A stretch of DNA of 64,000 bases from an uncultured Gammaproteobacteria bacterium (GTDB lineage: Bacteria; Patescibacteriota; Patescibacteriia; Veblenbacterales; UBA10138). The notes beneath the pieces are model-generated. The model saw only the letters and a program-made list of their open reading frames with translations, was not told the origin of the DNA and searched no databases. This document shows, one piece after another, positions 1 through 59,963 of the stretch. Made by a program: the position numbers and the translations under genes. The stretch is taken from contig CAYGDX010000004.1 of assembly GCA_964348825.1 (NCBI GenBank), positions 517-64,516 of the forward strand. The letters are read 5' to 3'. Position 1 is the first letter of the stretch, and every line of letters begins with the position of its first letter.

Positions 1-860
<860 letters not shown>

Positions 861-967
861 GCAAGAACGAGTAAATTGATATTTCAATATTTTGAAATAT
901 TTAAACTCTAGTCATTAAAATTATTTGCATGCTTGATTATAAAAAAGAAGGAGTGCAGTTAGCACTT

Positions 968-15964: not shown

Positions 15965-16354
15965 AATTAATCAATATAAAATCAGTGAGGCACTATCTTT
16001 AAGTGATATTATTATTTTACTAAAAAAACAGCACCTTTGCTAGGCGCTGTAATACGTTTTTAGTGACGAATTATTTTTTATTTGTAATTATTCTACAATG
16101 TCGGGCACGAATTCATGAAATTCGTAGGAGAGTATGATTGGATTTGTTGGTTTTAACCTTTTGCGTACCGTGTATAGATGCCATTCAGTTGGCTCCGGTA
16201 GTTTTTGTGCATTATTTTTTGTATCATTTGGTTTATTTTGCATATTTTTTCCATTATTTTTTGATTTTATAATTTTGGATTTATTTAGGATTTAGTGCTT
16301 TCGGTCTTCGTAGTCGTGACTACTACGACGAAGTAGACTCGGATTTCGGATTTT

Positions 16355-18247
16355 TTACTCCCACTCAATTGTACCAGGTGGTTTGTTGGTTAGGTCGTAA
16401 AAGATGTAGGAAATTTTAGGTAGGCGTTTAAGTTTATTAATTATTTTTTTAATTACTAATTCAGGTAGTAAAAAGGCCTGTCCAGTCATCGCTTCGCGGG
16501 AAACAATCGGGCGGATTACCAAACTATCTGGTTGTTTAGTTGTGCCAAACGGCAATAGTACTACCGGACATTGCCAAATTTTATAATAAAGGTTGGCTGA
16601 TTTTAATTCGTGAATAACAATTGCATCAGCTTGTTGCAGAGTTTTAAGTCGTACCGTGTTAATAAAAGTTTTTTGTAATTTACCTAAGTTTAAATTTGGC
16701 CCGCTTAATTTTAAAATTACTCGGTTGATGATTTTGTGTTGGTTGATGAGTGGTGTGGCGGCTTGGTGTAATACCCTAGCGGCGCGGTAGGGAGCACCAA
16801 TGGCCAAAGGATGAGCGTAACTTCGTTCGTCGCCTTGTACGCCCACACTTTTAATCGGCAGAATTCTAGTTTGGTAATTTTTGACTTTAATGTCTCCGGT
16901 TATGAGTTGCTTGTCCACCGTAGCTTGGCTACTCCGCCGAAGTGGATATGAAGGATGGATAGCGAAGGTGGAATGATTGGTATTTGCATCATTACATAAT
17001 ATTCTCACCCCAAGGCCGGGGCCGGGAAAAGGATGAGTCCATAACAATTCATGAGGCAAGCCCAATTCTTCACCAATGGCGCGTACTTCATCTTTATATA
17101 ATTCTTTAAGTGGTTCAACTAGTTTTCCTTGGCTCGATAGTTTAGCTAAAATATCAATTCTATTGTGGTGAGTTTTAATAATGTCAGAGTGTTTGGTGCC
17201 ACCTGATTCTATAGTATCAGGATAAATGGTGCCTTGACCAAGTAGCCAATCCTTGGTATTTAATTTCAATTTAGTTTGAGCTAAATTTTTTACATCTAAA
17301 AAAGTTTGCCCAATAATTTTACGCTTAGTTTCCGGATCACTAATATTTTTAAGTCGCTTTAGAAAAATTTTAGAATAATTAGCAATATGTAAATTTTTAA
17401 AACCAGCTTGAGCTAAAGCAGATTTTGCATTTTTGGATTCATTTAAGCGCATTAATCCAGTATCAATATGAAGACCATAAACTTGAGTGGTACCTAAAAT
17501 TTTATTAAGTAAGGCAAAGGCCACGGTAGAATCTACTCCACCCGAAACCAGTAAAAATACTTTTTTATTATCAACTTGTTTTTTAATTTGATTGGTAATG
17601 CGTGTGAGGACAGAGTTTTGTTTAGTTGATTCAAGATGGCAAATATTATAAATAAAATTCTTAAGTATTTGTTTACCGTATTCGGTGTGATCTACTTCCG
17701 GATGAAATTGCAAACCAAAAATCGGTTTGGTAGTATGCGCAATTGCGGCCTGAGTTAGTGTTTGGGTTGAAGTTAGGGTAATAAAATTTTTAGGTAGTTT
17801 AATTACACTGTCGCCATGACTCATCCAAACCGTGCTGGTTTTTGGTATGTCGGCAAGCAGTGGGTGATTATTTTTAATTTGTAGTTTAGCGTAACCATAT
17901 TCACGAATCTGACCGGCTTTAAGTTCACCTCCGAAATTGTGAGTTAAAAGTTGTAGGCCATAGCAAATTCCTAAAATAGGTATATTAATTTTAAGTAAGT
18001 TAGGATTAAACACTGCTGGATTTTTTAAAACACTCCTTGGGCCACCAGATAAAATAATACCAGCCGCTTTTTCAAATTTAGCGGTTGAAGCGGTGGGGGA
18101 AAGTAATTTAAAATCAACACCCAATTCTTTTAAATTGCGCGTGATTAAATGGGTATACTGCGAGCCAAAGTCGATTACGACGATGAATGGCTTGGATTGC
18201 TTCATGAGTTGATTATAGCTTAGGTGTTTGGTAGAATCAAAATACAA
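16355..18247 (-). CDS. guaA: GMP synthase (glutamine-hydrolysing), long form with insertions
   Basis: GATase-1 N-terminus (VIDFGSQYTHLI, GICYGLQ). PP-loop SGGVDSTV. C-terminal dimerisation domain. Confidence 0.85.
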   Translation of the reverse strand: MYFDSTKHLSYNQLMKQSKPFIVVIDFGSQYTHLITRNLKELGVDFKLLSPTASTAKFEKAAGIILSGGPRSVLKNPAVFNPNLLKINIPILGICYGLQLLTHNFGGELKAGQIREYGYAKLQIKNNHPLLADIPKTSTVWMSHGDSVIKLPKNFITLTSTQTLTQAAIAHTTKPIFGLQFHPEVDHTEYGKQILKNFIYNICHLESTKQNSVLTRITNQIKKQVDNKKVFLLVSGGVDSTVAFALLNKILGTTQVYGLHIDTGLMRLNESKNAKSALAQAGFKNLHIANYSKIFLKRLKNISDPETKRKIIGQTFLDVKNLAQTKLKLNTKDWLLGQGTIYPDTIESGGTKHSDIIKTHHNRIDILAKLSSQGKLVEPLKELYKDEVRAIGEELGLPHELLWTHPFPGPGLGVRILCNDANTNHSTFAIHPSYPLRRSSQATVDKQLITGDIKVKNYQTRILPIKSVGVQGDERSYAHPLAIGAPYRAARVLHQAATPLINQHKIINRVILKLSGPNLNLGKLQKTFINTVRLKTLQQADAIVIHELKSANLYYKIWQCPVVLLPFGTTKQPDSLVIRPIVSREAMTGQAFLLPELVIKKIINKLKRLPKISYIFYDLTNKPPGTIEWE

Positions 18248-18251
18248 ATTT

Positions 18252-18413
18252 GTTACTTTTTATAAAGTAACACAAAATCGCCGCCTCGGTCTCCGAGTTT
18301 GAACAGTGCTCGTCAGACGAACTGACTCGCCCTATGCAAAGCGACCACAAACACGGGCGAGTCGGACGTTCGTCTGACTTCCGCTCTGTACAAACCCTAC
18401 GACAGGGCGGCAA
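18252..18413 (+). repeat. GC-rich palindromic repeat element, copy 1 (small AT hairpin GTTACTTTTTATAAAGTAAC plus ~135-bp GC-rich imperfect hairpin)
   Basis: Shares termini CGCCGCCTCGGTC...CAGTGCTCGTC...GACTTCCGCTCTGTACAAA..CTACGACAGGGCGGCAA with copies at 53480-53638 (inverted) and 56486-56650. Confidence 0.8.
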
Positions 18414-18444
18414 TCACGGTTTATTAGTTAGATTTATAAACTTT

Positions 18445-19515
18445 ATGTTTAACACTGCTTTAACTTACGACGACGTTTTACTTCTCCCGCAATACTCCGA
18501 TATTCGACGGAGTGAGGTGAGTTTAAAAACAAATTTAACCAAAGGGTTGGGTTTAGAGCTTCCTATTTTATCCGCGCCAATGGATACAGTTACGGAAAGC
18601 GATATGGCAATTGCGCTGGCTCGCGCTGGTGGTTTAGGCGTGATTCACAAAAATATGAGTGTGTCCGAGCAAGCAATGGAAGTAAAGAAGGTGAAACAAA
18701 AAAAATTATTAGTGGGTGCGGCGATTGGGTATGGGGAAGGGGCGTTCGAACGAGCGTTGGCACTCGCTCAAGCCGGCGCTGATGTTTTAATAATTGATAC
18801 CGCACACGGGCATTCTAAGGGTGTGATTGAAATGACCCAGCAATTAAAAAAAGATTTACGTTTTAAAAAAGTGGAAATTATTGCGGGCAATGTGGCAACT
18901 GCCGAAGGAGTGCGAGCGTTAATTAAAGCTGGCGCCGATGCTGTGAAAGTGGGGATTGGTCCGGGCTCTATTTGTACCACGCGCGTGGTGGCCGGTATTG
19001 GTGTGCCACAACTTTCGGCAATATTTGAAGCGGTTCAAGTTGCAAAACAATCAGGCATATCTGTAATTTCCGATGGTGGTATAAATTATTCTGGTGATAT
19101 TGTAAAGGCACTGGCGGCTGGAGCGAGCTCGGTGATGATTGGTCGGCTACTAGCTGGTACCAAAGAATCACCAGGAAAATTAGTAAAAGAAAATGGTAAA
19201 TTATTTAAAACTTATCGGGGTATGGGAAGTTTTGAAGCGATGCAAAAAGGCAGTAAGGATCGGTATGGTCATGCTGATTCAACTAAAAAACAATTAGTGC
19301 CCGAAGGCGTTTCCGCGCGTGTGCCTTATACTGGTTTGGTGGCTGATGTTTTAGAACAAATGGCTGGCGGATTAAAATCAGGTATGGTATATATTGGTGC
19401 TAAAAATTTATTAGAATTAAAAAAGAAAGCGAAATTTATTCAGATTACATCGGCCAGTTTAAAAGAAAGTCACCCGCATGATTTAGCGAGTATGGATAAA
19501 GCAGTGAATTATTAA
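18445..19515 (+). CDS. guaB: IMP dehydrogenase, short form lacking the CBS subdomain
   Basis: [14 protein letters not shown]-terminus. Catalytic loop [11 protein letters not shown]. The ORF-track N-terminal extension (from 18334) is a translated repeat element; ATG at 18445 preferred. Confidence 0.8.
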
Positions 19516-20028: not shown

Positions 20029-21495
20029 TTATGGATTTTTAATCAATTTCATCAATTCCTCAATTGATGACTTTAGCTCTTGCGGAGTATATCCGCCATT
20101 GCTCGTATTTTCTGGGTGGTGAATCGAATTTCTAACGAAAGTCATCAACGACACATCTTCGGATTGTTGTGCTTTCCCATTTGCTATTTTAACCCATTTT
20201 TTAGATTTTGTAATGCTCTTGGTTGTAAAATATACTTCAACTTGGTCTATGCTGTATTTTTGCTGTGTTTCCTGCAAGTGTCCATAAAGCTCATTATGAA
20301 ATTCAATTGTTGGTAAATCATACGCAGAATAATTTATCTCGCCCCAAGACGGACTCCACGGGAAAATGCCGAACTGCAAACCAGTATTTTCTACCGAAAT
20401 TCCATCGTCAGTATTTTTCGTGATCAATAATTCAATTTGGGGGTTACTTAAACAATTCTTGAAAAAATATGGGGAGTGGGTGGAAATAAAAACTTGATTT
20501 GTTTTTGAAAATTCTATGAGATATTGGACAAACTTTTCTTGCAGGTGTGGGTGTAAATGAAGCTCTGGCTCGTCAATCAGCACAACAATCTTTTCTTTTG
20601 AGAGTGCGGCGAGTGTTTCTAAAAACAAGAGGGAGATTATCATTTCCACCCCTGAACCAAGAGTTGTAACGGGCAAATCAAGTTTTTCTAGTTTTTGTGA
20701 AAGAAAAGCACTATCAAATGGAGCGTTGCTATCAATAAAAGAAAGATCAATCGTATCAACTTCGAAATCCTTTAATTTTTTATTAAGAACCTCAAAACAC
20801 TTTTTCATTGAAGCGTCGTCAATCTTGCTTACTATTTCTTTTTCAAAAGTGTTTTTCTTTGCAAAAAAAGTTTCTTCTCCTTCGGCAACTGTTTCTTCTC
20901 GGACACTTTTCGAAAACCGCCAATTATAATCATCAAAAACAGAAGAAGCGGAGGAATTATAACCTCTTTGCAGTTGCTTCTCTCTATTTTTTCCAAAATA
21001 AAAACTCTTTGTAAACCCCTCTAAATCAACTTGAGATAAAGACAAAAGTCTTTCATCAAATTGATACTTTGTTCCAGTACCTCTTGTTATTTCCCAACCC
21101 TTTTCATTATCTTTTGGTCTGTTCGGAATAACATGATGAGATAAAACCACAATATCCGAAAACGCTTTGCCGTTAGCGGCGCGGTCTCTTTTCTTTATTT
21201 CTAAATAAACACCATTACATTCAACTTTTTGCGTAGTATATCCATCTGGCAACTTGGCGGTAAAAACTGAATCGAACTCAATTTTTATAATAATCGAATC
21301 ATCTGACCCATTGTAAAAATCTGTATGCTTAATTCTTCCAGATAAAAAATAGGGAGAAAGAACAAAATTTATTGCTTCAATAATCGAAGTTTTACCCGTT
21401 CCATTGTTCCCAATAAAAAGCGACAGATCTTTTGCCTCAAAAGAAATCTCTTTGATTGATCTAAAATTTTTAATTGATACTTTTGAGATTCTCAT
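20029..21495 (-). CDS. ABC-type ATPase of the OLD/GajA/PtuA-like (AAA_21/AAA_15) family, no Toprim detected
   Basis: N-terminus MRISKVSIKNFRSIKEISF...FIGNNGTGKTS (Walker A). VLIDEPELHLHPHLQ Walker B/D-loop. STHSP H-loop. Start overlaps the upstream gene by 4 nt (ATGA). Confidence 0.65.
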   Translation of the reverse strand: MRISKVSIKNFRSIKEISFEAKDLSLFIGNNGTGKTSIIEAINFVLSPYFLSGRIKHTDFYNGSDDSIIIKIEFDSVFTAKLPDGYTTQKVECNGVYLEIKKRDRAANGKAFSDIVVLSHHVIPNRPKDNEKGWEITRGTGTKYQFDERLLSLSQVDLEGFTKSFYFGKNREKQLQRGYNSSASSVFDDYNWRFSKSVREETVAEGEETFFAKKNTFEKEIVSKIDDASMKKCFEVLNKKLKDFEVDTIDLSFIDSNAPFDSAFLSQKLEKLDLPVTTLGSGVEMIISLLFLETLAALSKEKIVVLIDEPELHLHPHLQEKFVQYLIEFSKTNQVFISTHSPYFFKNCLSNPQIELLITKNTDDGISVENTGLQFGIFPWSPSWGEINYSAYDLPTIEFHNELYGHLQETQQKYSIDQVEVYFTTKSITKSKKWVKIANGKAQQSEDVSLMTFVRNSIHHPENTSNGGYTPQELKSSIEELMKLIKNP

Positions 21496-23009
21496 AAAGT
21501 TGCTTCATTCAACGTTCTCTTTTCCTCAAGACCGTGGACAAATTTATCAATATCCGAAATTCTTACTTCCAAACCATCCTTTTTGATAAAATCAAAATAG
21601 CGTTCAGTATCAATGAAGGATTTTGGTGAGATAAATACAGAATATGATTTTGTACCTTTCTTTACATACTCCTCAAGATGTCGGTGTACTGAAAATGACT
21701 CTCTAATATGTTGCTGTGTGCCTGTTAGTAAAGTCACTTCTATCAATACGGTGTCCTTATTTTCTAAACATTCAATATCTGGGTTTCCACCAGAAGCAAA
21801 ACTTGTCGGTAAACCCTCATCATCTGAAACAAAATTTGGCTTTACTACAACATTTGGTAATTTTTTGAGAATAGCCAAAGAGGTTAAAAACTCTAAACGC
21901 AAAGGCTGTTCGATCACCCGCAAAATATCGTCTTCGGAAGATTTTTTCTGCGCTAAATTAAGCATTTCGGTTTTAATTGATTTCCACGCATAATGATTTA
22001 CCCATTTTTCCAACTCTGCTTTAGTCGTTCTAATAGGAGTTTCATAGACGGAGAGCGTTGCAATCAAATTGGTGTCCACTTTGCCAATATAATTAAAATA
22101 ATCTTTTTCAGTCGTAAAGGTTGGATAAGAAATATAATTTTCTAAAATATAATTTACAGTCGCAATTTCTTTTGTGTTGATGTCAATGAAACGACCACCA
22201 CCACGCAAAGAAAATAAACCAGTTAAACGCATTTTACGAATAAAATCATCGGGATAATCGCCCAAGATAGAATTATCGTCTCTTTTGGTCTCGTTTAATA
22301 AGTCATAGCAAAGATCTAAAACTATCTCGTTGCTTGGCGAATAGCCATGTTTTTTACGCAACTTTTTTATTTGACGATATAAACTTTCGGCATTATCATT
22401 TTGCCAACAGAGCAATAACGGAATTTCTAACCTTGAAATACCCGTGCCATTATAGGCAGGGTCATTGTCTAGGAGTTTTATTGTTTGTATCAGCAATATC
22501 AATGGTACATTTTTATTTAAAACTCTACGAAACGGATTTTGTCGCTGATATTTTGCGAAAGCATTAGCAAAAACCATCAATTCGTTTTCGGGTTTTACTT
22601 TATCCAATATCATTTTCCCGCTTTCGGAAAATTTTATTTCTTCATTTGGCCAATACCAAATAAAACCAAGTTCTTTGGCAATTTTAAACCAAGTATCAAA
22701 TCTTGATGGCCAACCTTTTTCAAAACCCGCCTCTTTATGGCTTTGCGGATTGTCATTAAATACTTTTTCGGTTTCAGCCTCGCTTAGTTCTATTTCGTTT
22801 TTCCATTTACCTTTTACTACTTGCGTTATTTTCATGGGTTGATATAACCCTTTTTGAATCAAGATTTTAGCTACTTTATCAATAATTTCGTTTGTTAAAA
22901 TTTTGCCATCATATTCAGCAAGCACGGTTAAAAAATCCTTTAGTCGTTCAGGATTTCTCATTGTTGTCGTAAATAATAATGGTTTATATTCAGATTGTCG
23001 TTTTTTCAT
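21492..23009 (-). CDS. Hypothetical 505-aa protein; candidate restriction endonuclease (C-terminal PD-(D/E)xK-like segment GNPDIECL...LIEVTLL)
   Basis: Operonic, overlapping both neighbours. Weak PD...E.T/K-like motif near the C-terminus. Assignment is inference. Confidence 0.35.
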   Translation of the reverse strand: MKKRQSEYKPLLFTTTMRNPERLKDFLTVLAEYDGKILTNEIIDKVAKILIQKGLYQPMKITQVVKGKWKNEIELSEAETEKVFNDNPQSHKEAGFEKGWPSRFDTWFKIAKELGFIWYWPNEEIKFSESGKMILDKVKPENELMVFANAFAKYQRQNPFRRVLNKNVPLILLIQTIKLLDNDPAYNGTGISRLEIPLLLCWQNDNAESLYRQIKKLRKKHGYSPSNEIVLDLCYDLLNETKRDDNSILGDYPDDFIRKMRLTGLFSLRGGGRFIDINTKEIATVNYILENYISYPTFTTEKDYFNYIGKVDTNLIATLSVYETPIRTTKAELEKWVNHYAWKSIKTEMLNLAQKKSSEDDILRVIEQPLRLEFLTSLAILKKLPNVVVKPNFVSDDEGLPTSFASGGNPDIECLENKDTVLIEVTLLTGTQQHIRESFSVHRHLEEYVKKGTKSYSVFISPKSFIDTERYFDFIKKDGLEVRISDIDKFVHGLEEKRTLNEATL

Positions 23010-23013
23010 AATT

Positions 23014-23919
23014 TTAATAGTTAGTGATCAAGACTTCTTTGATTATCTTTTTCCCATTATTGTGGTAACTAATATAGTTGCTTTCAATTTTGTGTACTTT
23101 GTATTGTTCCATCCACTCTATCAAAAGGTCATTTTTGCTTCCATTGTAATGTGTAACATTTGATAAAGCAAATTTAACGCCTCTTTTGTCTAAATTATCG
23201 ATTAAGTCTAACAAGTCAGATTCTGATTTTGAATCCCAAAACTTATTATATTCGCTTGCGGTTATTAAGTAGGGCGGATCTAAATAAACAAAATCATTTT
23301 TAAAATATTGTTTCTCTGAAAAAAACTTTTTAAAATCATTCGATGTAATTGTGATTTTCTTATTATTTACAAAATCAAAATAGCCATTTAGGGCATTGAC
23401 TACATTTTTGTTAAAATCAACATTCCCGACAGGTAGATTAAATTTGCCACCACCATTAAATCTCAACATTCTGTTAAACCCATATATAAGTAAAACATAC
23501 AAAATCAGAGGGTCATTTTTTTTGTTATTATTTACACATACTCTCAATTTTTCGTATCCCTCTTTGTTAAATCGGGCGAAATAAGTTTTTTTCCATTCTT
23601 TTTTTAGTGAATCGGGAATTATATCTTCTTTGTAAGATTTGGATAATTTATATTCGGATATTACTTTTTCAACGCTTTTAAAAAACGGGCTTGGATTGTC
23701 TGCATTTTTCATTAAAAACTTATGTATGTTGATGAGATGTTTGTTTATATCATTTAAAAAATACTTCTTCGCTTCAATGTTCAAAAATACAGTGCCTCCG
23801 CCAACAAAAGGTTCGTAAAAATTATTCACTTCTTTGGGAAATAAATTTATCAGTTGCTTCATTAATTTGTATTTATCCCCAACATAAAATAACGGGGATC
23901 TTTTGATTTTGTTATTCAT
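23014..23919 (-). CDS. D12-class (Dam-like) N6-adenine DNA methyltransferase
   Basis: Motif I FYEPFVGGGTVFLN. Motif IV YLDPPY. N-terminal YVGDKYKL. Alpha-group motif order. Confidence 0.8.
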   Translation of the reverse strand: MNNKIKRSPLFYVGDKYKLMKQLINLFPKEVNNFYEPFVGGGTVFLNIEAKKYFLNDINKHLINIHKFLMKNADNPSPFFKSVEKVISEYKLSKSYKEDIIPDSLKKEWKKTYFARFNKEGYEKLRVCVNNNKKNDPLILYVLLIYGFNRMLRFNGGGKFNLPVGNVDFNKNVVNALNGYFDFVNNKKITITSNDFKKFFSEKQYFKNDFVYLDPPYLITASEYNKFWDSKSESDLLDLIDNLDKRGVKFALSNVTHYNGSKNDLLIEWMEQYKVHKIESNYISYHNNGKKIIKEVLITNY

Positions 23920-25723
23920 GTTGGTTTTTAGTTACGAACAAATACTCTTTGTGATTATTGAAATTTGTATTTCCGGCATTAAAATGTCTATAATTTTTTT
24001 CAAAAACTTTTGTTTTACCTTTTGCTTGTAAGATTTTCTCAATTTCTTGAAGTGTGATTTTATTTTTTGATGAGTTACTTTTTGAATCGTATGTATTATT
24101 GTACGAAACAACCAAAAATCGAGCATCAATATCTCTCACAAGCTCTGCAAATTTTTCTTTGGCATTAGCTCGGCAGTAATCGCTCATATTTTCTGGATCT
24201 GGTTTTAGCGCAACTCCATAAAGTTTTGGCTTATCCCATTTGGTCAATGTTTCAAGTACATGATAAAAACGACTGTATTGTCTGGAATTATAGGGCGGAT
24301 CAATATAAACCACATCTGCTTTTATCTTTTTTGCCAGAACATTTGTGTCTTCTTGAAAAATAGATATTTCTTGAGTATTAATCGGATCAATCGGTTTCAT
24401 GAAAAAACTATCATTTACAAAATCTTTTTTAAAATAAGCATCAAAATGTCCAACGGTATTAGCGATTTTGTCAGCCGTATAAAGCAATGATGCAATCAGT
24501 ATAAAATATTCTCTTTCTGTTAAATTGTTTTTGTTTTCTTCAATGTTTTCCCTGATAAAGCCGATAATTTTAGCTGAATTATTGCTGAAAAATTTACCGC
24601 CAAAGTTTTTGGAAAAATAATTATCTTCTAAATCTCCACCATAAATATTATTGTAGTTCTTAATAATGCCGTCTATCTTATTTTTGTCCCACGCTTCTTT
24701 TCCAAAAAAGGCACGATATATTATGTAATTGGAATGTAAAAAATCATTTAATAATACTTTTTTAAAGTGTTTTGTCGCTACAGCAGATACAACCCCCGTC
24801 CCAGCAAAAACATCTGCAAAAGAATTTCCGCTACATTCTTTGTTTATAATCGAAAAAATCCATTCAATTAGTTTGTGCTTATTCCCTATATATCTGCGAT
24901 TATGTAATTGGATATGATTTTCTTTTACTTGTGGGATGTAGAAATAATTTTCTTGAATTTTTTCAGCAGTTATTTCATAAGTTGGTTTTTCAATTTCAAG
25001 TAAGGCGAAAAGAGTGCCCTGTATTCCGTCTGCAACATAATCAAAACCACCCTTTTGTTTTTTTAGTTTTTCGTGAAAACTGTAATGATCGTTTTCGGAG
25101 ATAATAATGAAATCAATAACAGGTATTCCCATTATTTCTCCTGCTTGAACTATTTTTTCGACAATTTGATTATCTTTTTCACTTGGTGAAGAATCGCCCG
25201 ATGGATGGTTGTGAATTAAGATAACGCTAGCGGCGTTTAATTCTGTTGCCGGATAAAAGATTTCTCTTGGATGTAGCAATGTTTTATCTAGTAATCCTAC
25301 ACTAACAATTTCCTTTTTGAGGAGAAAATTTCTTGCGTTAAGATATAAACAAACTAGGTGTTCTTTTTTCTTATCTCTTAAATCGTAGGTGAGTTGTAGA
25401 ACATCTTGAGAATTTTTAATAATAGTCTCGTTTGATTTTTCATCCGCATAGAATCTTTTGACCAATGAAATTGCGGAAGCAATTTGTAGTGCCTTGGCTT
25501 GGCCAATCCCTGAAATTTCCAAAAGATCATCAACGGTTATATTTAAAAAGTTTTTACCAAACTTTTTGATAATACTCTCTGAAAGTTCCCTGACATTTTT
25601 ACCCTTTATGCCACTACCTAAAAGAATTGCCAAAAGATCACTTTTTGAAAGAGCATCAGCTCCTTTTTGGAGGAATCGTTCGCGTGGTCTATCAATTTTT
25701 GGAATGTCTTTAAGCTTTCCCAT
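23912..25723 (-). CDS. Fusion protein: N-terminal RadC-like JAB/MPN domain plus C-terminal D12-class (Dam-like) N6-adenine DNA methyltransferase
   Basis: RadC segment PRERFL...LLAILLGSG...HNHPSGDSSPSEKD (JAMM motif). MTase segment RYIGNKHKL...FADVFAGTGVV (FxGxG), VVYIDPPYN, FLVVSYNNT. Confidence 0.75.
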   Translation of the reverse strand: MGKLKDIPKIDRPRERFLQKGADALSKSDLLAILLGSGIKGKNVRELSESIIKKFGKNFLNITVDDLLEISGIGQAKALQIASAISLVKRFYADEKSNETIIKNSQDVLQLTYDLRDKKKEHLVCLYLNARNFLLKKEIVSVGLLDKTLLHPREIFYPATELNAASVILIHNHPSGDSSPSEKDNQIVEKIVQAGEIMGIPVIDFIIISENDHYSFHEKLKKQKGGFDYVADGIQGTLFALLEIEKPTYEITAEKIQENYFYIPQVKENHIQLHNRRYIGNKHKLIEWIFSIINKECSGNSFADVFAGTGVVSAVATKHFKKVLLNDFLHSNYIIYRAFFGKEAWDKNKIDGIIKNYNNIYGGDLEDNYFSKNFGGKFFSNNSAKIIGFIRENIEENKNNLTEREYFILIASLLYTADKIANTVGHFDAYFKKDFVNDSFFMKPIDPINTQEISIFQEDTNVLAKKIKADVVYIDPPYNSRQYSRFYHVLETLTKWDKPKLYGVALKPDPENMSDYCRANAKEKFAELVRDIDARFLVVSYNNTYDSKSNSSKNKITLQEIEKILQAKGKTKVFEKNYRHFNAGNTNFNNHKEYLFVTKNQHE

Positions 25724-25725
25724 AT

Positions 25726-26574
25726 TTATTTCCTATAAACTTCTTCTAATGTCTTACCACTTTCCGTTTTCCATTTTTTCCAACCGCTAGTTGAATTTCC
25801 CAAAACGATGTCTGATGCGGCGCTTGGACTATTAAAAACATAATCCTTAACAAAAACATATAAGTCATCGCCTCTTTTTTCGAGATAATTGTTTTTCAAT
25901 AACTTTTCTATAATTTTCTGATTACGATCAATAACTGCCTTCGAAATATCGGTTGTTGCGGTTGAATCTTTATAAACAACAAAGCCATCGTTTGTCATAC
26001 GACCAGTTGCTAAAGCGTCTTTACCCCTACAAGTAAAAAGAGGGTCTGATATATTTTTTTGTTCTTTAGAAATAACTTCTTGCAAAATTGGGTAGCCAAG
26101 GGCAGAAAACAAAAGTTTCAGGTTTTCCAAAAATTCTTCCATCTCGGCAATATCTGCTTCAGATAAAGAAGGTAAAGATGATTCTGTGCCATTTTCTAAA
26201 TTAAACCTTTTTGCCTTAGTTGCTAAAGTTAAGCATCTACTCTCGAGATATCTAACATGAGCTTTTGTTAAATTATTATCTTTACTCACAAATGCTACTG
26301 CGATTTGCCAAAAATCTTTCGAGCCATCATGAGTTGATAATCTATTCCATAAATTTTCTGCCTCTCCCACATATGCAGTGGGTAATAGTGCTTCTTCACT
26401 CTCTTTACCTATCAGAAAATAAACTGCTGGCTTGTTACATTCAGGGCGTTGTTTTATTTCTTTAAGTTTATTTCTAGGGATAACAATTGCTTGACCAACC
26501 CAATTACTTAATTCAGCGGTTTTTAGGCCGTTAGGTTCGCCGTCAATCAAAAATATTTTTATAGTTTTTGCCAT
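25726..26574 (-). CDS. GIY-YIG-like nuclease domain protein with DUF4357-like C-terminal domain
   Basis: N-terminal PAVYFLIGK...AYVGEAENLWNRLSTH resembles the GIY-YIG core. C-terminal FTCRGKDALATGRMTNDGFVVYKDS resembles DUF4357. First gene of the operon. Confidence 0.5.
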   Translation of the reverse strand: MAKTIKIFLIDGEPNGLKTAELSNWVGQAIVIPRNKLKEIKQRPECNKPAVYFLIGKESEEALLPTAYVGEAENLWNRLSTHDGSKDFWQIAVAFVSKDNNLTKAHVRYLESRCLTLATKAKRFNLENGTESSLPSLSEADIAEMEEFLENLKLLFSALGYPILQEVISKEQKNISDPLFTCRGKDALATGRMTNDGFVVYKDSTATTDISKAVIDRNQKIIEKLLKNNYLEKRGDDLYVFVKDYVFNSPSAASDIVLGNSTSGWKKWKTESGKTLEEVYRK

Positions 26575-31686: not shown

Positions 31687-31755
31687 TGGTGCGCGCACCA
31701 GGGATTGAACCTGGGGCCTGTCCGATGGCCATCGGACCGCTCTCGTCATTAATAA
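31687..31755 (-). pseudogene. tRNA gene 3' fragment (end of D-arm, anticodon-stem region, T-arm, acceptor 3' strand GCGCGC-A-CCA)
   Basis: Reverse complement reads ...GAGAGCGGTCCGATGGCCATCGGACAGGCCCCAGGTTCAATCCCTGGTGCGCGCACCA. It lacks a 5' acceptor/D-arm. It shares a 29-nt repeat with the 5' fragment at 32131-32178. Confidence 0.55.
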
Positions 31756-32118: not shown

Positions 32119-32130
32119 AGATTAATATGG

Positions 32131-32178
32131 ACCTGTCCGATGTCCATCGGACCGCTCTACCACTGAGCTATGCGCGCG
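32131..32178 (-). pseudogene. tRNA gene 5' fragment (acceptor 5' strand GCGCGCA, D-arm, anticodon-stem region)
   Basis: Reverse complement reads GCGCGCATAGCTCAGTGGTAGAGCGGTCCGATGGACATCGGACAGGT, and no T-arm follows. It is complementary in content to the 3' fragment at 31687-31755. Confidence 0.55.
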
Positions 32179-33719: not shown

Positions 33720-33905
33720 AATAGCCCGTTACCTTAGCAAATTTAAAAATTATGTCAAGGCCTATTAAATTTAGCAGGTTGATACTCCATTACACCAGTG
33801 GTTGACTAATCTGTCAAGTAGGCGTAGAATTGGACAGTAATAGGCACTTAAACACTAGAACATTAGAGCATTTAATCATCCGGTCAGTTTTTATTTTAAT
33901 TATTT

Positions 33906-33937
33906 TAATGTTCTTACTGTTCTAGTGTTCTAATGAT
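33906..33937 (+). promoter_or_regulatory. Recurrent AATGTTCT..GTTCTAGTGTTCTAATGATC motif immediately upstream of the infB start
   Basis: The same motif family is found upstream of ymdB (43285-43318) and overlapping the gyrA start (56933-56969). An inverted partner AACACTAGAAC is at 33853 and 56893. Confidence 0.4.
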
Positions 33938-33940
33938 CTT

Positions 33941-35938
33941 ATGAATATAACCGAACTCGCTCGCAAATTAAAGATTACCACTGAACAGCTGAAGGATGAA
34001 TTACCTAAGCTTGGTTTTGATATTGGTCGACGCGCGATTAAAATTGATGATGCGGCGGCGGAAAAAGTAATAAAATTATGGTCTGAAAAGAAAAGTAGCG
34101 TACCCGATACTCGTTATTTTGTAACTGAGAAAAAATTAAACGAAGTAGTTCCTCAAGCCGATAAAAAAAGCGTGGCCTTACCAGTTACTTGTACAGTGCG
34201 TGAACTTGCTGAGTTGTTGCACTTACCGGTAACTAATGTAATTGCGGAATTATTTAAAAATGGAATTATGGCGGCGATGAATGAGCGAATTGATTTTGAT
34301 ACAGCAACTATTATTGCGCAGGATTTGGGTTTTGCAACTAGTTCGGCCAAAGAGTCAGGCGTTGAAATTAAAGATGAAGTAAAAATAAATTTTAATGAAG
34401 CTGATAGTGAATCGAGTGCTAATTTGGTATCTCGTCCGCCAGTGGTGGTGGTAATGGGTCACGTGGATCATGGCAAAACAACTTTGCTTGATGCGATTCG
34501 TTCCACTAATATTGCAGCTGGGGAATCAGGTGCAATTACTCAACATATTGGTGCTTATCAAACTGAAGAAAAAGGACGCAAGATTACTTTCTTAGATACA
34601 CCAGGCCACGAGGCCTTTGCCGCTATGCGCGCACGTGGTGGCAGGATTGCCGATGTGGCAATTATTGTGGTTGCGGCCGATGACGGAATGCAGCCACAAA
34701 CTTTAGAAGCTATTGAAATTGCCCAACGTGAGCAATTACCGTTTTTATTTGCGATTAATAAAATTGACAAAGAAAATGCTGATATTGAAAGAGTAAAAAA
34801 GGCATTGGCTGATTTAAATTTACTACCTGAAGATTGGGGTGGTAAAACAATTTGTGTGCCGATTGCTGCTAAAAAGAAACAAGGTATTCCTGAACTTTTG
34901 GATATGGTATTACTACTTTCAGACCTTGCGCATTTGGTAGCTAATCCAAATAAATTAGCCGGCGGCACAGTAATTGAATCACGGCTTGATAAGGGTGAAG
35001 GGCCAGTGGCTACCGTACTTGTGCAAACTGGCACGCTACATTTAGGGGATATGATTATTTTAGGGGAGGCCACTGGTAAAATTAAAGCGATGCGAGATTA
35101 TTTGGGTCAAGCTTTAAAACAGGCTACACCATCTACCCCAGTTCGTATTTTAGGTTTAAAACAAGTACCAAAATCAGGTGAAATATTCCGCGTTACTCGC
35201 GATGAAGCAGAGGTAAAAGAAGTGGCGCGCAGTGCTCCACGTTATCAAAAAACAAGCCCAGCTTCACCTAACATCGTAAGTAGTTTAGTTGATAAAAATA
35301 ATAATGAAGCCGAAGCTAAAGAATTACCAACGCTTAAATTAATTTTAAAAACTGATGTGTTAGGCAGTCGCGAAGCAATTGTTTCGTCGTTGGCTCAATT
35401 TAATTCTAGCGAAGTGAAAGCAAAATTAGTACGAATGGGTTTAGGTAGTATTAATGAGCACGATGTGGTGGAAGCCGAGGCCTCGGGCGCTTTACTCTTA
35501 GGATTCAATGTGCCAATTATGCCAATGGCAGAAATAGTGGCGCGTCGAAAAAATGTTTTTGTCCAAAATTATAAAGTAATTTATGATTTACTGGATGAAG
35601 TAAAAAAACGTTTGCAAGCCCTACTAAAACCAGAACTTGTGCGCACCCAACTCGGTGAGGCCGAAGTGGTACAAATTTTTAAGCGCGGTAAGCGTGATAT
35701 GATTGTGGGATGTCGTGTGAAGCAAGGGTTGGTGCGACCAAAAACCAAAGCTCAAGTAATACGTGGTGATTCAGTGGTAGCAGTGTTGGAACTAACTGAA
35801 ATTAGAATTGGTAAAGAAATTGTGGGTGAAGTGGCTGAAGGTAGTGAATGTGGTTTTGGTTTGAAGGGTGATCCTATAGTTCAAGAAAAAGATATTTTAG
35901 AAATATATCATGAAGAAATTAGACAGCGCACCATTTAG
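33941..35938 (+). CDS. infB: Translation initiation factor IF-2
   Basis: G-domain VVVMGHVDHGKTTLLD, DTPGHEAF, NKID. IF2 N-terminal domain. Confidence 0.9.
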   Translation: MNITELARKLKITTEQLKDELPKLGFDIGRRAIKIDDAAAEKVIKLWSEKKSSVPDTRYFVTEKKLNEVVPQADKKSVALPVTCTVRELAELLHLPVTNVIAELFKNGIMAAMNERIDFDTATIIAQDLGFATSSAKESGVEIKDEVKINFNEADSESSANLVSRPPVVVVMGHVDHGKTTLLDAIRSTNIAAGESGAITQHIGAYQTEEKGRKITFLDTPGHEAFAAMRARGGRIADVAIIVVAADDGMQPQTLEAIEIAQREQLPFLFAINKIDKENADIERVKKALADLNLLPEDWGGKTICVPIAAKKKQGIPELLDMVLLLSDLAHLVANPNKLAGGTVIESRLDKGEGPVATVLVQTGTLHLGDMIILGEATGKIKAMRDYLGQALKQATPSTPVRILGLKQVPKSGEIFRVTRDEAEVKEVARSAPRYQKTSPASPNIVSSLVDKNNNEAEAKELPTLKLILKTDVLGSREAIVSSLAQFNSSEVKAKLVRMGLGSINEHDVVEAEASGALLLGFNVPIMPMAEIVARRKNVFVQNYKVIYDLLDEVKKRLQALLKPELVRTQLGEAEVVQIFKRGKRDMIVGCRVKQGLVRPKTKAQVIRGDSVVAVLELTEIRIGKEIVGEVAEGSECGFGLKGDPIVQEKDILEIYHEEIRQRTI

Positions 35939-50213: not shown

Positions 50214-50337
50214 GATTGGTTTAAAAATTCGAAATTCGAGTCTACTTCGTCGTAGTAGTCACGACTACGAAGACCGAAAGCACTAAATTCGAAAATTTCG
50301 TATTTCGATATTCGGATTTCGAATTTAAATTAAATTA

Positions 50338-51521: not shown

Positions 51522-53336
51522 TTAACTCATCAAAGTATCAAATTCTTCTCGTTCTAGCACTTCTTTTTCCACTAAGGTTTTGGCAATTAATTCTAATTTA
51601 TCGCTTTTGTCGCGAATAAGTTTTTGTGCCACTTTGTAAGCCGAGTTTAAGAAATGAGAAACTTCTTCGTCAATCGTTTGGGCCACTTTTTCACTATAAT
51701 CGCGTTGTTCGCTGATTTCACGGCCTAAGAAAATTAATTCTTCTTTTAGTCCGAAAGTGCGAGGGCCTAATTTTTCCGACATACCAAACTCAGTTACGAG
51801 TTTGCGGGCGAGCTTAGTAGCGCGTCGTAAATCACTTTGTGCGCCAGTTGTTACTTCACCAAAAATTTCTTTTTCGGCGGCGTGACCAGCGAGCATTACG
51901 GCTAAATCATCTACAAATTCTGATTTAGGATGCATATATTTATCCTCCAGTGGAAGTTTAAGTGTGTAACCCGCGGCCTGCCCTCGCGAAATAATAGAAA
52001 CTTTGTGTACTGGATCAGCGTTGGGTAAAAAGTGGGCGACCAGCGCGTGACCACCTTCGTGATAAGCCGTAATCTTTTTTTCTTTGTCACTTAAGATGTG
52101 ACTTTTTCGCTCTGGCCCAAGCATTACTTTTTCAATTGCTTCTAAACATTCTGACATAGTGACTTGTTTTTTATTACGACGCGCAGTAAGAATAGCGGCT
52201 TCATTTAAAACATTCGCGAGATCCGCACCCGAAAAGCCAGGTGTGCGTTGGGCAATAGTGCGTAAGTTAACGTCTGAGCTCAGCGGTTTAGTTTTAGAAT
52301 GAGTAACTAAAATTGCTTCGCGGTCATTAATATCTGGCTCGTCTAAAACTACTCGGCGGTCAAAGCGACCAGGGCGAAGTAGTGCCGGATCCAAAACATC
52401 TGGTCGATTAGTAGCCGCCATTACAATGACATTCACATTAGTTTCAAAACCATCCATCTCCACTAAAATTTGGTTTAAGGTTTGTTCACGTTCGTCGTGT
52501 GAACCTCCCATACCAGTACCGCGTTGCCTGCCTACCGCATCTATTTCATCAATAAAAATAATACAAGGTGAACTTTTTTTAGCCCGGGCAAATAAATCAC
52601 GCACCCGTGAAGCTCCAACACCCACAAACATTTCCACAAATTCTGAACCGGAAATATGAAAAAAGGGAACACTCGCTTCACCGGCCACCGCGCGAGCGAG
52701 AAGTGTTTTACCAGTACCTGGTGGGCCAACTAGTAATACGCCTTTTGGAATTTTGGCGCCAAGGTCTAAGAATTTTTTAGCGTTTTTTAAAAAGTCCACC
52801 ACTTCGGTTAATTCTTGTTTGGCTTCTTTAGCACCGGCCACATCTTTAAAGGTAGTAGTGCTTTTTTTATTAGTTTTGTCATTTTCACGGGCGCGCGATT
52901 GACCAAAAGACATGGCCTTGGAATTGGCGCCCTGAATTTGCCGCGACATAAAAAATATAAATAGGCCGAGGAGTAGTATAGGAATAATAAAAGGCGCGAG
53001 TGTACCAAACCAATAACCGGCACCAGAAGCTTGTTCAACCTCTTGTTCAATAGTTAATAATTTTTTAGGATCAAGGTTATAATTACGAGCTAATTCTGAT
53101 AATGATTCACCCGGTTCTTTTGAGGCCTGTAAAATTTTACCGTCTTTAAGTTTGGCTTGTAGCTTATCAGGCATCACTGTAATTTTAACTACGTTTTCTT
53201 CGGCGATTGTTTGAATAATTTTATTTAAGCTAACTTTTTCTACTTTAGGACTTTCACCCATAAATAAAGAAGCTAGTGAAGCTAGCACCAAAAAGGCCAC
53301 AAAAAATACTAAGAAATTTTTGACTAAACTACGCAT
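51522..53336 (-). CDS. ftsH: ATP-dependent zinc metalloprotease FtsH
   Basis: AAA Walker [18 protein letters not shown] (HExxH). Confidence 0.9.
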
Positions 53337-53479
53337 GGGATTTATTATAAAATATTAAAGTTTAACTGCTAGGATATTGTAGGGTAAAATGGGTTAGAAA
53401 TCAAGAGAGGATTATTTAAATCCTAAATTCGAATATCGAAATCCGAAATAATTACCAAATCCCAATTCTCAACAGTTTT

Positions 53480-53638
53480 GCCGCCCTGTCGTAGGGTTTG
53501 TACAGAGCGGAAGTCAAACGAGCGTCCGGTTCGGGCGTGCTGTGGTAGTTGTGCATAGCCCGAACCAGCTCGTTTGACGAGCACTGCTCAAACCCAGAGA
53601 CCGAGGCGGCGATTTTGTGTTACTTTATAAAAAGTAAC
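53480..53638 (-). repeat. GC-rich palindromic repeat element, copy 2 (inverted orientation)
   Basis: Reverse complement aligns end-to-end with copy 1 (18252-18413), including the flanking GTTACTTTATAAAAAGTAAC hairpin. Confidence 0.8.
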
Positions 53639-56485: not shown

Positions 56486-56650
56486 ACCACTTCTCTAGAG
56501 AAGTGGTGCAAGAGTCGCCGCCTCGGTCTTCGTATTTGAACAGTGCTCGTCGGACTCGTTGGCTCGGGCTATGCACAGCGGCCACAAACACGCCCTCGCC
56601 GGACACTCGTCCGACTTCCGCTCTGTACAAATACTACGACAGGGCGGCAA
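56486..56650 (+). repeat. GC-rich palindromic repeat element, copy 3 (small hairpin CCACTTCTCTAGAGAAGTGG plus GC-rich hairpin)
   Basis: Termini AGTCGCCGCCTCGGTC...CAGTGCTCGTC...GACTTCCGCTCTGTACAAA.ACTACGACAGGGCGGCAA are shared with copies 1 and 2. Confidence 0.8.
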
Positions 56651-56664: not shown

Positions 56665-56880
56665 ATGTCTTTAAGGGTTAAACAACATAGACGATTAACA
56701 AACGAGCATTTGTCCATTAAATTAACTGGTGCGCAGATTTTATTTTTTTTAGCTGTAATTTTAGTAGTTGTTTTGGGAATTTTTAGCATTGTTTATAGTT
56801 TTAAAAAAGCTGATACAGTAGAGAGTTTTAGCATTTACGGTTATATAAAGGAGAAGTTGAGTAGTGTGGAAGTTAAGTGA
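56665..56880 (+). CDS. Possible small single-TM membrane protein (start uncertain)
   Basis: The ORF-track N-terminus (from 56503) is a translated repeat element. The hydrophobic segment ILFFLAVILVVVLGIFSIVY lies after it. Confidence 0.25.
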   Translation: MSLRVKQHRRLTNEHLSIKLTGAQILFFLAVILVVVLGIFSIVYSFKKADTVESFSIYGYIKEKLSSVEVK

Positions 56881-59821: not shown

Positions 59822-59825
59822 TTTT

Positions 59826-59950: not shown

Positions 59951-59963
59951 AAATTTTAAACCT

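Follow-up and report, generated by a model that had tools for sequence, protein, structure and literature searches.

Genomic context and architecture of the element

The window, that is, the whole 64-kb stretch of DNA that was analyzed, comes from the AT-rich genome of a member of the groundwater Patescibacteria and carries three copies of a GC-rich interspersed structured repeat beside guaA and guaB, ftsH and a gene for an S1-domain protein, and an MBL-fold protein gene and gyrA. The repeat is real and previously undescribed, and its function is unproven. In agreement with the original prediction, the copies lie at 18252-18413 (forward strand), 53478-53638 (reverse strand) and 56487-56650 (forward strand) and have one common architecture. 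Genes and features of the three regions are the following:

16355-18205, reverse strand: guaA (gene call checked)
18209..18237, forward strand: TG-extended, promoter-like TTGATT-17-TAGAAT site immediately upstream of copy 1 (consensus match only)
18252..18271, forward strand: copy 1, small hairpin GTTACTTT-TTAT-AAAGTAAC; a T-run comes before it and the linker ACAAAATC (18272-18279) after it
18278..18413, forward strand: copy 1, long GC-rich hairpin of four helices and 44 pairs (158.5 bits with a covariance model of 136 positions and 44 pairs)
18333..18354, forward strand: copy 1, apical loop TATGCAAAGCGACCACAAACAC, A/C-rich and conserved in sequence throughout the family
start at 18445, forward strand: guaB, an IMPDH of 356 aa, divergent from guaA (gene call checked)
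51522-53336, reverse strand: FtsH (gene call checked)
53478..53612, reverse strand: copy 2, long hairpin with apical loop at 53537-53557 (covariance-model match, 158 bits)
53619..53638, reverse strand: copy 2, small hairpin, with the same sequence as in copy 1
53715-54959, reverse strand: S1-domain protein (gene call checked)
55821-56474, forward strand: MBL-fold protein (gene call checked)
56487..56506, forward strand: copy 3, small hairpin CCACTTCTC-TA-GAGAAGTGG, followed by the linker TGCAAGAG
56515..56650, forward strand: copy 3, long hairpin containing two 2x2 internal mismatches, apical loop at 56570-56591 (covariance-model match, 153.9 bits)
56665-56880: 71-aa ORF between copy 3 and gyrA
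56967-59471: gyrA, following the 71-aa ORF downstream of copy 3
60605-61300: RNase III

Copy 1 occupies the spacer of the divergently oriented guaA and guaB, its end being 32 nt ahead of the guaB ATG; an ATG in its loop is in frame with guaB, which accounts for the 393-aa guaB call made by the gene caller. Copy 2 has the terminator of the S1-domain gene on one side and a promoter-like ftsH site (53404-53376, reverse strand) on the other, and the small hairpin of copy 3 begins 13 nt past the stop codon of the MBL-fold gene. The claim that all copies lie at gene boundaries is true, but what it describes is a general intergenic location with no link to guaB, ftsH or gyrA. In a relative whose guaB is 90% identical (L010), the guaA/guaB spacer holds a different AT-rich repeat instead of the element, and in a second relative (L011; guaB 76% identical) this spacer lacks the element and is only 87 bp long.

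The repeated unit of ~165 nt comprises an AT-rich small hairpin of 8-10 bp, a CAARARTC linker and a GC-rich hairpin of ~135 nt, which is closed by a conserved, A/C-rich apical loop of 22 nt. The internal stems read as originally quoted: GTCAGACGAAC/GTTCGTCTGAC (stem a) and GACTCGCCC/GGGCGAGTC (stem b) in copy 1, GTCAAACGAGC/GCTCGTTTGAC and GGTTCGGGC/GCCCGAACC in copy 2, and GTCGGAC/GTCCGAC together with GGCTCGGGC/GCCCTCGCC in copy 3, where stem b has two central mismatches. The AT-rich hairpin said to precede each copy is likewise present in all three. A central loop block is indeed shared, but its sequence in copy 2 is CCACAGCAC, with a 1-nt deletion, and not CCACAAACAC. On one strand the tails of the long hairpin are AAUCAC, AAAACUG or AAUAAA, and on the other GAUUUUGU or GACUCUUG.

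GC content was also predicted to be far above background, and we found 0.59-0.60 in the hairpin core versus 0.30-0.41 in 2-kb windows (background ~37%). RNA folding gave energies of -66 kcal/mol for copy 1 (z -6.6), -74.8 for copy 2 (z -8.3) and -56.4 for copy 3 (z -4.6). Chance is excluded as an explanation of the repeats: shuffles are expected to give fewer than 0.4 matches to the 20-mer hairpin, and likewise to a 15-mer of the element end. The element sequence of the window is also found in independent assemblies (ENA ERZ27247837, contig k141_1759568, 100% identical; ERZ27247817; Logan ERR3094292) and is therefore no assembly artefact.

Copies in other genomes

Beyond the three copies, neither the window nor ~19 kb of additional flank from the same 176.8-kb contig contained a further full or partial copy (a modest density of 3 copies in ~83 kb). 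Searches of other genomes raised the total to 14: of the eleven additional copies, seven come from the MAG GCA_038061115.1 and four from other groundwater assemblies, two of these four being longer composite forms. Five of them were reached through spurious ORFs, by plus-frame translation of the element and protein search, whereas the same search with the minus frames gave no match. In the MAG, copies occupy glycosyltransferase/T4SS-pilin, Na/Ca exchanger, MFS/ksgA, metK, pth/dprA, tgt/queA and NUDIX/hypothetical boundaries. The MAG sequence and the window-genome sequence that were compared have no gene in common. Exact-pattern scans of JGI metagenomes and IMG/VR returned a single match, which arose by chance in a helicase gene of a high-GC contig; other conserved blocks had no match in exact-pattern scans of IMG/VR, nor did blastn find any in phage and plasmid collections.

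Copies within one genome are 78-91% identical and not near-identical, so a recent burst is not indicated. Across genomes, copy 3 and the MAG copy L005 are 96-97% identical, with unrelated flanks and in different gene contexts, and other lineages retain the same architecture at 60-70% identity. Small hairpins of the copy 1 type are found in copy 2, L001, L006, L019 and L020, and those of the copy 3 type in L005 and L021. Element GC is 59-70% across copies in AT-rich genomes. L014 and L015, the most divergent copies, still retain the apical loop; their flanks have 48% and 56% GC, respectively. These two are long forms of ~350 nt (L014) and ~450 nt (L015), in which an inverted partial copy lies 16 nt from the full copy and a second hairpin bears the exact complement of the apical loop, so that a loop-loop pairing of ~20 bp is possible. 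The long forms were also considered as tRNA- or tmRNA-like molecules, for which ARAGORN was negative.

The location of the element is dispersed and non-orthologous. Between co-directional genes it stands in sense orientation three times (copy 2, copy 3 and L006) and antisense twice (L003 and L005), and relative to local GC skew seven copies are positive and seven negative, without the bias that replication-coupled mobility of a single strand might produce. Three gene-related explanations were rejected. A riboswitch or gene-specific leader does not fit unrelated neighbors, mixed orientation and the lack of a copy upstream of guaB in relatives. A coding element is incompatible with the 1-nt loop indel that shifts the reading frame in copy 2, L002 and L006; translated frames matched only spurious ORFs that had been called over other copies of the element. 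Finally, a conserved internal promoter (TTGTTA/TTTACC with a CAARAAT-like -10) was dismissed, as its spacing varies from 17 to 20 nt and its hexamers covary as parts of a hairpin.

Compensatory change preserves the stems

The original prediction held that covariation of the stems implies selection on the fold, and this became stronger with more copies. In an unfitted MAFFT alignment of nine copies, 95.4% of 395 cells are paired and both sides change in 14 of 44 pairs, while slid-register controls gave 29-42% paired. With 13 sequences, 93% of cells are paired and both sides change in 23 of the 44 base pairs; slid controls reached 31-41%, and none of 500 shuffles attained the observed values. 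In the larger set, substitutions are thus compensatory rather than random, and since compensatory change keeps the stems, it is the single-stranded fold that is under selection. The small hairpin covaries as well (GTTAC/GTAAC versus CCAC/GTGG versus CCCAC/GTGGG; ACTTT/AAAGT versus ACTTC/GAAGT). The loops are under sequence constraint, with 29 of 49 unpaired columns invariant as against 32 of 88 paired ones, and no gene is encoded.

Snap-back structure repair can homogenize palindromes, and module shuffling shows that copies do recombine with one another. The arms might then be alike through intra-element gene conversion or hairpin repair, without selection, the copies being relics of duplication. 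Such conversion, however, would erase the 3-nt bulge, the 2/4 and 3/3 internal loops, the A-A and U-U mismatches and the U:G pair, and these asymmetries are the best-conserved parts of the element. GC held at 59-70% in AT-rich genomes and the maintenance of one architecture at 60-70% identity in other lineages also speak against this explanation, which is already disfavored and which we consider highly improbable.

A second alternative is that the element acts as double-stranded DNA, either as a protein site (nucleoid-associated, gyrase/IHF-type or recombinase), with the 22-bp core and the small palindrome as the bound parts, or as a cruciform insulator. Roles of this kind, as nucleoid-associated, gyrase/IHF-type or recombinase sites, have been proposed for BIMEs. 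The 22-bp core stands side by side in both orientations in L014 and L015, copy 3 has a small hairpin that forms a perfect palindrome of 20 bp, and copies lie at transcription-unit boundaries, where they adjoin AT-rich periodic modules. Duplex binding, however, gives no reason for 23 compensatory pairs along a 44-bp stem, and the loops of the small hairpin (TTAT, TTAAT, TTAGT) are non-palindromic, which indicates that a hairpin and not a dyad operator is conserved. We regard a role as duplex DNA as very unlikely.

Does the element act as RNA?

The original prediction offered an expressed structured RNA as one of two options. Under this reading the copies would be a family of functional structured RNAs, either multicopy small RNA genes or a cis module (a stabilizer, a processing site or a protein platform). 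Recognition would then fall to the 22-nt apical loop and to those internal loops that are conserved, with the helices serving only as a scaffold. We see this as the main, though less probable, rival of the reading that we favor. It is favored by stems that covary while unpaired nucleotides keep their sequence, by a GC content (~0.6) like that of the tRNAs and 5S rRNA of the same AT-rich genome, and by homologues kept in lineages of differing base composition, such as those of L014 and L015. On the strand beginning with the small hairpin, unpaired positions are A/C-rich, and 12 of 13 sequences retain a U:G pair at columns 46:88. In the window, each of the three copies has the orientation of the gene downstream of it, and the promoter-like site at 18209..18237, if used, would make copy 1 part of a guaB leader; this stretch is conserved in the element-free relative L010. 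The complementary loops of L014 and L015 would permit pairing between hairpins.

Several observations point the other way. Upstream flanks are unrelated save for the T-run, and a conserved promoter is absent; a terminator is not consistent either, with a T-run after the hairpin only in L019. Copy 2 is bounded by a terminator on one side and by the promoter-like site of the following gene on the other, L003 and L005 run antisense to the genes on either side of them, the element is not tied to any gene family, and the orthologous spacer of close relatives is devoid of it. Among sporadic one-sided transitions, read on the strand starting with the small hairpin, A:C (12) exceeds G:U (3), which weakly indicates the opposite strand and contradicts the conserved U:G pair.

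No Rfam family corresponds to the element, as the original prediction required: Rfam 15 applied to the whole window at the gathering threshold detected only rRNA, 5S and tRNAs, a permissive scan of 18200-18460 gave only noise (E ~7-9) outside the long hairpin, and the long forms L014 and L017 had no relevant match. Somewhat speculatively, the element could represent an unrecognized class of structured RNA, or an RNA/ssDNA selfish element with its own partner protein, conserved in several lineages of groundwater Patescibacteria. The 22-nt loop would then be a specific recognition or base-pairing sequence, L014 and L015 would be a larger ncRNA with paired hairpin loops, and the 165-nt copies of the window a miniature derivative that has proliferated.

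An unusually long terminator or insulator hairpin, which would prevent read-through between transcription units, was also considered. Every copy is intergenic, the GC-rich stem is followed on the opposite strand by GAUUUUGU or GAUUCUUGG, and TTTTTT comes directly after the L019 hairpin on the first strand. A terminator scan, however, identified no site at any of the three window copies, and ordinary short terminators are present in the same spacers (after the S1-domain gene, and at L001 and L019). In subfamily C the trailing sequence is GACUCUUGCACC, without a U-tract; moreover, orientation relative to genes is mixed, and a 135-nt hairpin with conserved asymmetric loops far exceeds what termination needs. 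We consider this function very unlikely.

Comparison with known repeat families

REPINs are mobile hairpins that commonly show compensatory changes, with 101 GI REPINs in P. fluorescens SBW25 (PMC3116915), and TnpA-REP is strand-specific and acts on single-stranded REP hairpins with bulges (PMC8266576, where BIMEs are also mentioned). Like REPIN/REP sequences, the element is extragenic, dispersed and present in both orientations, and it forms a non-coding hairpin of ~100 nt with compensatory changes. In REPs a conserved GTAG directly precedes the short imperfect palindrome; in the element GTAG (CTAC at columns 121-124) stands just before helix 2 on the opposite strand in 11 of 13 copies. The other arm, however, has UCC/UUC at the mirror position instead of GTAG, so the doublet symmetry is lacking: a REPIN consists of two inverted short REPs whose ends are mirror images, while the arms of the element are not mirrored at conserved unpaired positions. 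The palindrome of ~100 nt also exceeds the 20-40 nt of REPs. In addition, REPINs differ from the element in its long, asymmetric, conserved apical loop, its extra 5' small hairpin, its apparently far lower copy number and the lack of any visible RAYT gene in ~83 kb.

ERIC/IRU elements of enterobacteria and Correia elements of Neisseria are imperfect intergenic palindromes of 100-160 bp that are often transcribed, and Correia elements are further marked by defined terminal inverted repeats and a duplicated TA. With both families the element shares insertion in either orientation, presence or absence among relatives and a stable RNA hairpin if co-transcribed. It differs from them in having no sequence similarity, in being GC-rich within an AT-rich genome, and in its strongly conserved unpaired nucleotides and separate small hairpin; neither the defined terminal inverted repeats nor the TA duplication of Correia elements was found in it. 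BIMEs of E. coli and NIMEs of Neisseria are intergenic mosaic elements. Similarly, the element forms mosaics with periodic, AT-rich GGATTT/TTCGAAAT blocks (copy 2, L004, L005, L020 and L021), with a ATTCCCGC..GCGGGAAT hairpin (L001 and L006) and with inverted partial copies (L014 and L015), but its modules are unrelated to REP or dRS3.

The GC clusters of yeast mitochondria are tens of bp long and belong to a eukaryotic organelle. They too are GC-rich, apparently mobile palindromes in AT-rich intergenic spacers (PMC4478555); the element is much longer and unrelated in sequence, and has bipartite hairpins and a long conserved loop. Three further families were rejected. An IS200/IS605-derived PATE does not fit, with one small hairpin only, the other being a 135-nt hairpin of different sequence, and no fixed motif in the right flank. 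An integron attC site would have the core sites RYYYAAC ... GTTRRRY and lie in arrays of co-oriented cassettes, but the ends of the element are GCCGCC/GGCGGC, the copies are solitary among housekeeping genes in both orientations, and no integrase was seen. As for a retron msr-msd, the sole reverse transcriptase seen (L005:873-1925) is 2.5 kb away, past an oppositely oriented pth, and the other copies have none.

A proposed non-autonomous element recognized as a folded single strand

The reading that we favor, and to which we would give about an even chance, is a non-autonomous, REPIN/ERIC-like interspersed element that is recognized as a folded single strand. According to this model, the non-coding unit of ~165 nt (small hairpin, linker and long asymmetric hairpin) would persist and spread in a group of groundwater Patescibacteria through recognition of its single-stranded fold; this form of recognition is suggested because stems change only pairwise, sequence is retained in the bulges and loops, and the small hairpin retains its structure. 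An enzyme acting in trans, with its gene elsewhere in the genome, would copy or move the unit into AT-rich intergenic DNA, candidates being a strand-specific HUH/RAYT-like single-strand DNA transposase or another hairpin-recognizing recombinase. A copy that landed in a transcription unit would be co-transcribed as a very stable RNA hairpin. That the element moves at all, that it does so through a single-stranded intermediate and that such an enzyme exists is inferred.

The copies also behave as repeats typically do. Modules have been shuffled among them, L006 combining a small hairpin of the copy 1 type with stems of the copy 3 type. L021 has a 20-nt palindrome nested within a stem. A Logan contig ends inside the small hairpin of copy 3, at window position 56509, as would be expected if assembly broke at a repeat. 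The conservation of unpaired nucleotides, which includes lineages of 56% GC (L015), is equally expected of a functional RNA.

A MITE was the other option of the original prediction. Presence or absence at guaA/guaB, unrelated contexts, both orientations and shuffling are good evidence of a dispersed, mobile-like repeat, and the basal helix GCCGCC/GGCGGC could pass as the inverted repeats of a classical MITE, although the small hairpin lies outside it; target-site duplications and a cognate transposase, on the other hand, were not found. No direct repeat of fixed length was present in the flanks of nine of the 14 copies, or of the other five where these were read, and the right flanks have no fixed short motif in common. 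Neither an HUH nor any other transposase was found in ~83 kb of the genome (the window plus ~19 kb) or beside the MAG copies. We found no clean pair of empty and filled sites; at guaA/guaB the insertion ends are undefined because the whole spacer is replaced in the relative L010.

Implications for Patescibacteria

The genomes of Patescibacteria (the candidate phyla radiation) are tiny and streamlined, and to our knowledge almost nothing is known about their non-coding content and mobile DNA. Full-text literature searches yielded no description of palindromic interspersed repeats or MITEs in Patescibacteria. A family this rich in covariation provides a structural model for discovering RNA or single-strand-DNA elements in these bacteria, a marker for strain-level rearrangement and assembly breaks in their genomes, and a handle on the enzyme or RNA-binding protein that recognizes it. 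If the element is a functional RNA, it would be among the few lineage-specific structured RNAs known in this uncultured bacterial branch; if it is REPIN-like, hairpin-based single-strand mobility would extend to reduced, symbiont-like genomes.

Architecture of the GC-rich element

All three copies of the GC-rich hairpin repeat were found where the original prediction had placed them, and the stem sequences quoted for them were all correct, the sole slip being the copy 2 loop, which actually reads CCACAGCAC. Read on the strand that has the small hairpin first, the parts of every copy follow the same order: a T-run, an AT-rich hairpin of 8-10 bp (GTTACTTT-TTAT-AAAGTAAC in copies 1 and 2, CCACTTCTC-TA-GAGAAGTGG in copy 3), a linker (ACAAAATC or TGCAAGAG), and a long hairpin of ~135 nt that starts with TCGCCGCC and ends with GGCGGCAA. 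This long hairpin comprises 44 pairs over four helices, with internal loops (2/1, 3/3, and 2/4), one A-A and one U-U mismatch, a 3-nt GGA bulge, and a 22-nt A/C-rich apical loop (UAUGCAnAGCGACCACAAACAC). The core coordinates were set by a covariance model built on the element family:

18278-18413, + strand, element core of copy 1
53478-53612, - strand, element core of copy 2
56515-56650, + strand, element core of copy 3

The GC content of the core is 0.59-0.60, compared with 0.30-0.41 for the window, and the folding energies of the three copies lie 4.6-8.3 standard deviations under those of shuffled sequence.

Further copies and source genome

When one genome for each GTDB species was scanned for an exact pattern, six copies were identified, all of them in the Hainich well H52 MAG GCA_038061115.1 (Patescibacteria group bacterium); the same type of scan of JGI metagenomes and IMG/VR returned only a chance match within a helicase gene. 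The element has no coding capacity. Since gene callers sometimes predict spurious ORFs across it, we searched its translation against protein libraries and recovered five more loci: a seventh MAG copy (L021), one locus from Hainich H52 (L020), one from the sample that also yielded the window (L019), and two long forms, both divergent, in other metagenomes of groundwater (L014 and L015-L018). No fourth copy was present in the window plus ~19 kb of extra flank from the same contig, giving a density of ~3 copies per 83 kb.

The window matches a stretch of a 176,828-nt contig (ENA assembly ERZ27247837) at 100% identity. Several lines of evidence point to a genome belonging to Patescibacteria: the named guaB homologues are from this group, the 16S gene (L024:15975-17482, ~18 kb past the window's right end on the same contig) is unlinked to the 23S gene, and the 23S rRNA gene (window 1-862) carries a ~407-nt insertion near model position 2500. 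A strain variant (L009, ERZ27247817) shows 5 differences over 6.8 kb, one of which disrupts a copy 1 base pair.

Selection on the folded structure

We first aligned the nine closest copies with MAFFT, without fitting to a model. Standard pairs filled 95.4% of 395 pair cells, and 14 of 44 pairs had changed on both sides; pairing fell to 29-42% when the 3' partner was shifted by 1-3 columns. We then aligned 13 sequences to the covariance model and compared five measures with 500 shuffles. Here, 93% of cells were paired and both-sided changes affected 23 of 44 pairs (57 cells), and none of the 500 shuffles attained any of the five measures, which upholds the proposal that covariation reflects selection on secondary structure. 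The helices vary as follows:

Basal helix: GCCGCC/GGCGGC, GCGGCC/GGCCGC
Helix 2: GGGUUUG/CAAACCC, GUAUUUG/CAAAUAC, AAGUUUG/CAAACUU, GGACCAG/CUGGUCC
Helix 4: GACUCGCCC/GGGCGAGUC, GGUUCGGGC/GCCCGAACC, GGUCAGGCC/GGCCUGACC

Covariation is present in the small hairpin as well. Unpaired columns are more often invariant (29/49) than paired ones (32/88), and therefore the stems are held to pairing, while the loops and bulges are held in sequence. A neutral palindrome is an unlikely explanation, and its neutral homogenization was rejected because this would remove exactly the loop and bulge asymmetries that are seen conserved. A binding site for a protein recognizing duplex DNA is likewise unlikely.

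Gene contexts and dispersal

The gene contexts of the element are unrelated and its orientation is mixed; it is independent of any particular gene. The MAG copies lie at glycosyltransferase/T4SS pilin, MFS/ksgA, pth/dprA, tgt/queA, and NUDIX/hypothetical boundaries or adjoin a Na/Ca exchanger gene or metK. Within co-directional gene pairs, copies 2 and 3 and L006 run in the sense orientation, whereas L003 and L005 run antisense (L-numbers from L001 to L006 denoting MAG loci). Orientation is also unrelated to local GC skew.

Dispersal is non-orthologous. In a relative whose guaB is 90% identical (L010), the guaA|guaB spacer retains the promoter stretch GTTGATTATAGC...GGTAGAATCAAA and has a different AT-rich palindromic repeat (L010:2625-2760) exactly where the window has the GC element; this ~130-nt family also occurs in the window upstream of nusB and rnc (59825-59956, 60487-60604). 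In a second relative (L011, guaB 76% identical), the spacer measures merely 87 bp. Copy 3 and L005 share 96-97% identity in otherwise dissimilar surroundings, and modules of the element recombine or nest: in L006 the small hairpin is of the copy 1 type and the stems are of the copy 3 type. One Logan contig ends within the copy 3 small hairpin, and a perfect 20-nt palindrome (CCTGCCTGCCGGCAGGCAGG, L021:3176-3195) is nested in the 5' strand of the L021 basal helix.

An extra upstream hairpin module common to L001 (~1000-945) and L006 (GTCATTCCCRC..GCGGGAATCTAGAAATTAAAATTA, hairpin ATTCCCGC/GCGGGAAT) shows the spacers to be mosaics built from several repeat families. An AT-rich periodic GGATTT/TTCGAAAT module directly follows the element in copy 2, L004, L005, L020, and L021; such modules, often with TTTAGTGCTTCGG, are common in spacers of the window genome (27736-27793, 36326-36391, 50285-50334, 53414-53468, 61301-61355, and 63912-63970).

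In both long forms (L014 and L015), 16 nt beyond the element, there is a partial copy in inverted orientation (model positions 32-106), whose loop is reverse-complementary to the first loop; further GC-rich hairpins follow, ending in GGAGGTAGGGGGC...GCCCCCTACCTCC. Most of the extension (second and closing hairpins) is highly conserved between them, whereas the first-hairpin stems differ widely. Searches of the long forms with Rfam and ARAGORN gave no match. With two sequences available, either of two readings may hold: a cluster of repeats comparable to those formed by REPINs or BIMEs, or a larger RNA whose loops pair with each other.

Transcription signals and strand

A promoter-like site (TTGATT-17-TAGAAT, 18209-18237, + strand) precedes copy 1, and this predicted promoter would place the copy within the guaB leader. 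Copy 2 has the terminator of an S1-domain gene on one side and an ftsH promoter-like site on the other, and copy 3 follows the MBL-fold stop codon by 13 nt. Comparison of flanks revealed no conserved promoter upstream of the element, and scans of the three window copies found no terminator-like site after it; a role as terminator is unlikely.

The strand signals conflict. U:G pairs at columns 46:88 (12 of 13 sequences) and 9:129 (7 of 13), together with the A/C-rich unpaired bases, favor the small-hairpin-first strand. The sporadic one-sided transitions (on the first strand, A:C 12 times and G:U 3 times) favor the opposite strand, on which these changes are mostly wobble pairs, as do three such positions in a row in L020. 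In 11 of 13 copies, the opposite strand also has a GTAG immediately preceding helix 2, reminiscent of the GTAG ahead of the hairpin in REP sequences (PMC8266576).

Other repeats and islands in the window

The public gene call P0001 (393 aa, window 18334-19515) has guaB beginning at an ATG within the apical loop of copy 1; the gene most likely begins at 18445 instead (356 aa), as it does in all relatives. We also observed the following features:

16284-16355 and 50223-50294, inverted: 72-nt repeat, 94% identical, with a nested GC hairpin (GTCTTCGTAGTCGTGACTACTACGACGAAGTAGAC) and then a T-run, at the guaA 3' end and immediately upstream of a T2SSE-type ATPase gene
20029-26574: low-GC island adjoining guaB, probably a restriction-modification or defense island, encoding an AAA/SMC-like ATPase, an AlwI-type restriction enzyme, a DUF4357 protein, and two D12 adenine methyltransferases, one fused to RadC
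31714-31743 and 32129-32158: 30-nt repeat (GGGCCTGTCCGATGGCCATCGGACCGCTCT), 93% identical, downstream of the tRNA-Val and tRNA-Ile(UAU) genes
32152-32177: adjoins the 30-nt repeat, similar to a tRNA 5' part, and may be a tRNA gene remnant
56880-56984 and 33852-33955: GAACA/TGTTC-rich inverted-repeat block (TAGAACACTAGATCACTAGAACAT ... ATGTTCTAATGATCTAGTGTTC) directly upstream of gyrA and the IF-2 gene, also in the MAG (L001:153-227, L002:4013-4115, L004:1463-1574), which may be an operator-like or mobile module

In the MAG, a reverse transcriptase gene (RVT_1, L005:873-1925) lies beside a masked-base run, 2.5 kb from an element copy; it probably represents a retroelement with no relation to the GC-rich repeat.

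Nature of the element

The best-supported reading is a non-autonomous, structure-constrained interspersed repeat. We give an even chance to a REPIN/ERIC-like selfish element, which an enzyme encoded elsewhere would recognize as a folded single strand, allowing mobility through a single-strand intermediate, and which would be passively co-transcribed where inserted. The original prediction had offered a MITE or an expressed RNA: a MITE of the TIR type finds no support, as the flanks showed no target duplication, while a family of functional RNAs stays the main rival. Functional RNAs would account equally well for the conserved loops, high GC, and deep conservation, but the element comes without promoters, terminators, or any gene association, and we regard them as a possible but weaker candidate.

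The interspersed repeat behaves most like a REPIN or ERIC element, and membership in neither is established; unlike REP/REPIN sequences, it lacks mirror symmetry, and no RAYT was seen in the ~83 kb covered. The defining features of IS200/IS605 PATEs, attC sites, retrons, and riboswitches are absent from it, and full-text literature searches turned up no account of repeats like these in Patescibacteria. A tentative option is a structured RNA not described before, or an element whose partner is of a new kind. Not assigned to any of the families considered, the element adds to the structured interspersed repeats of intergenic regions.
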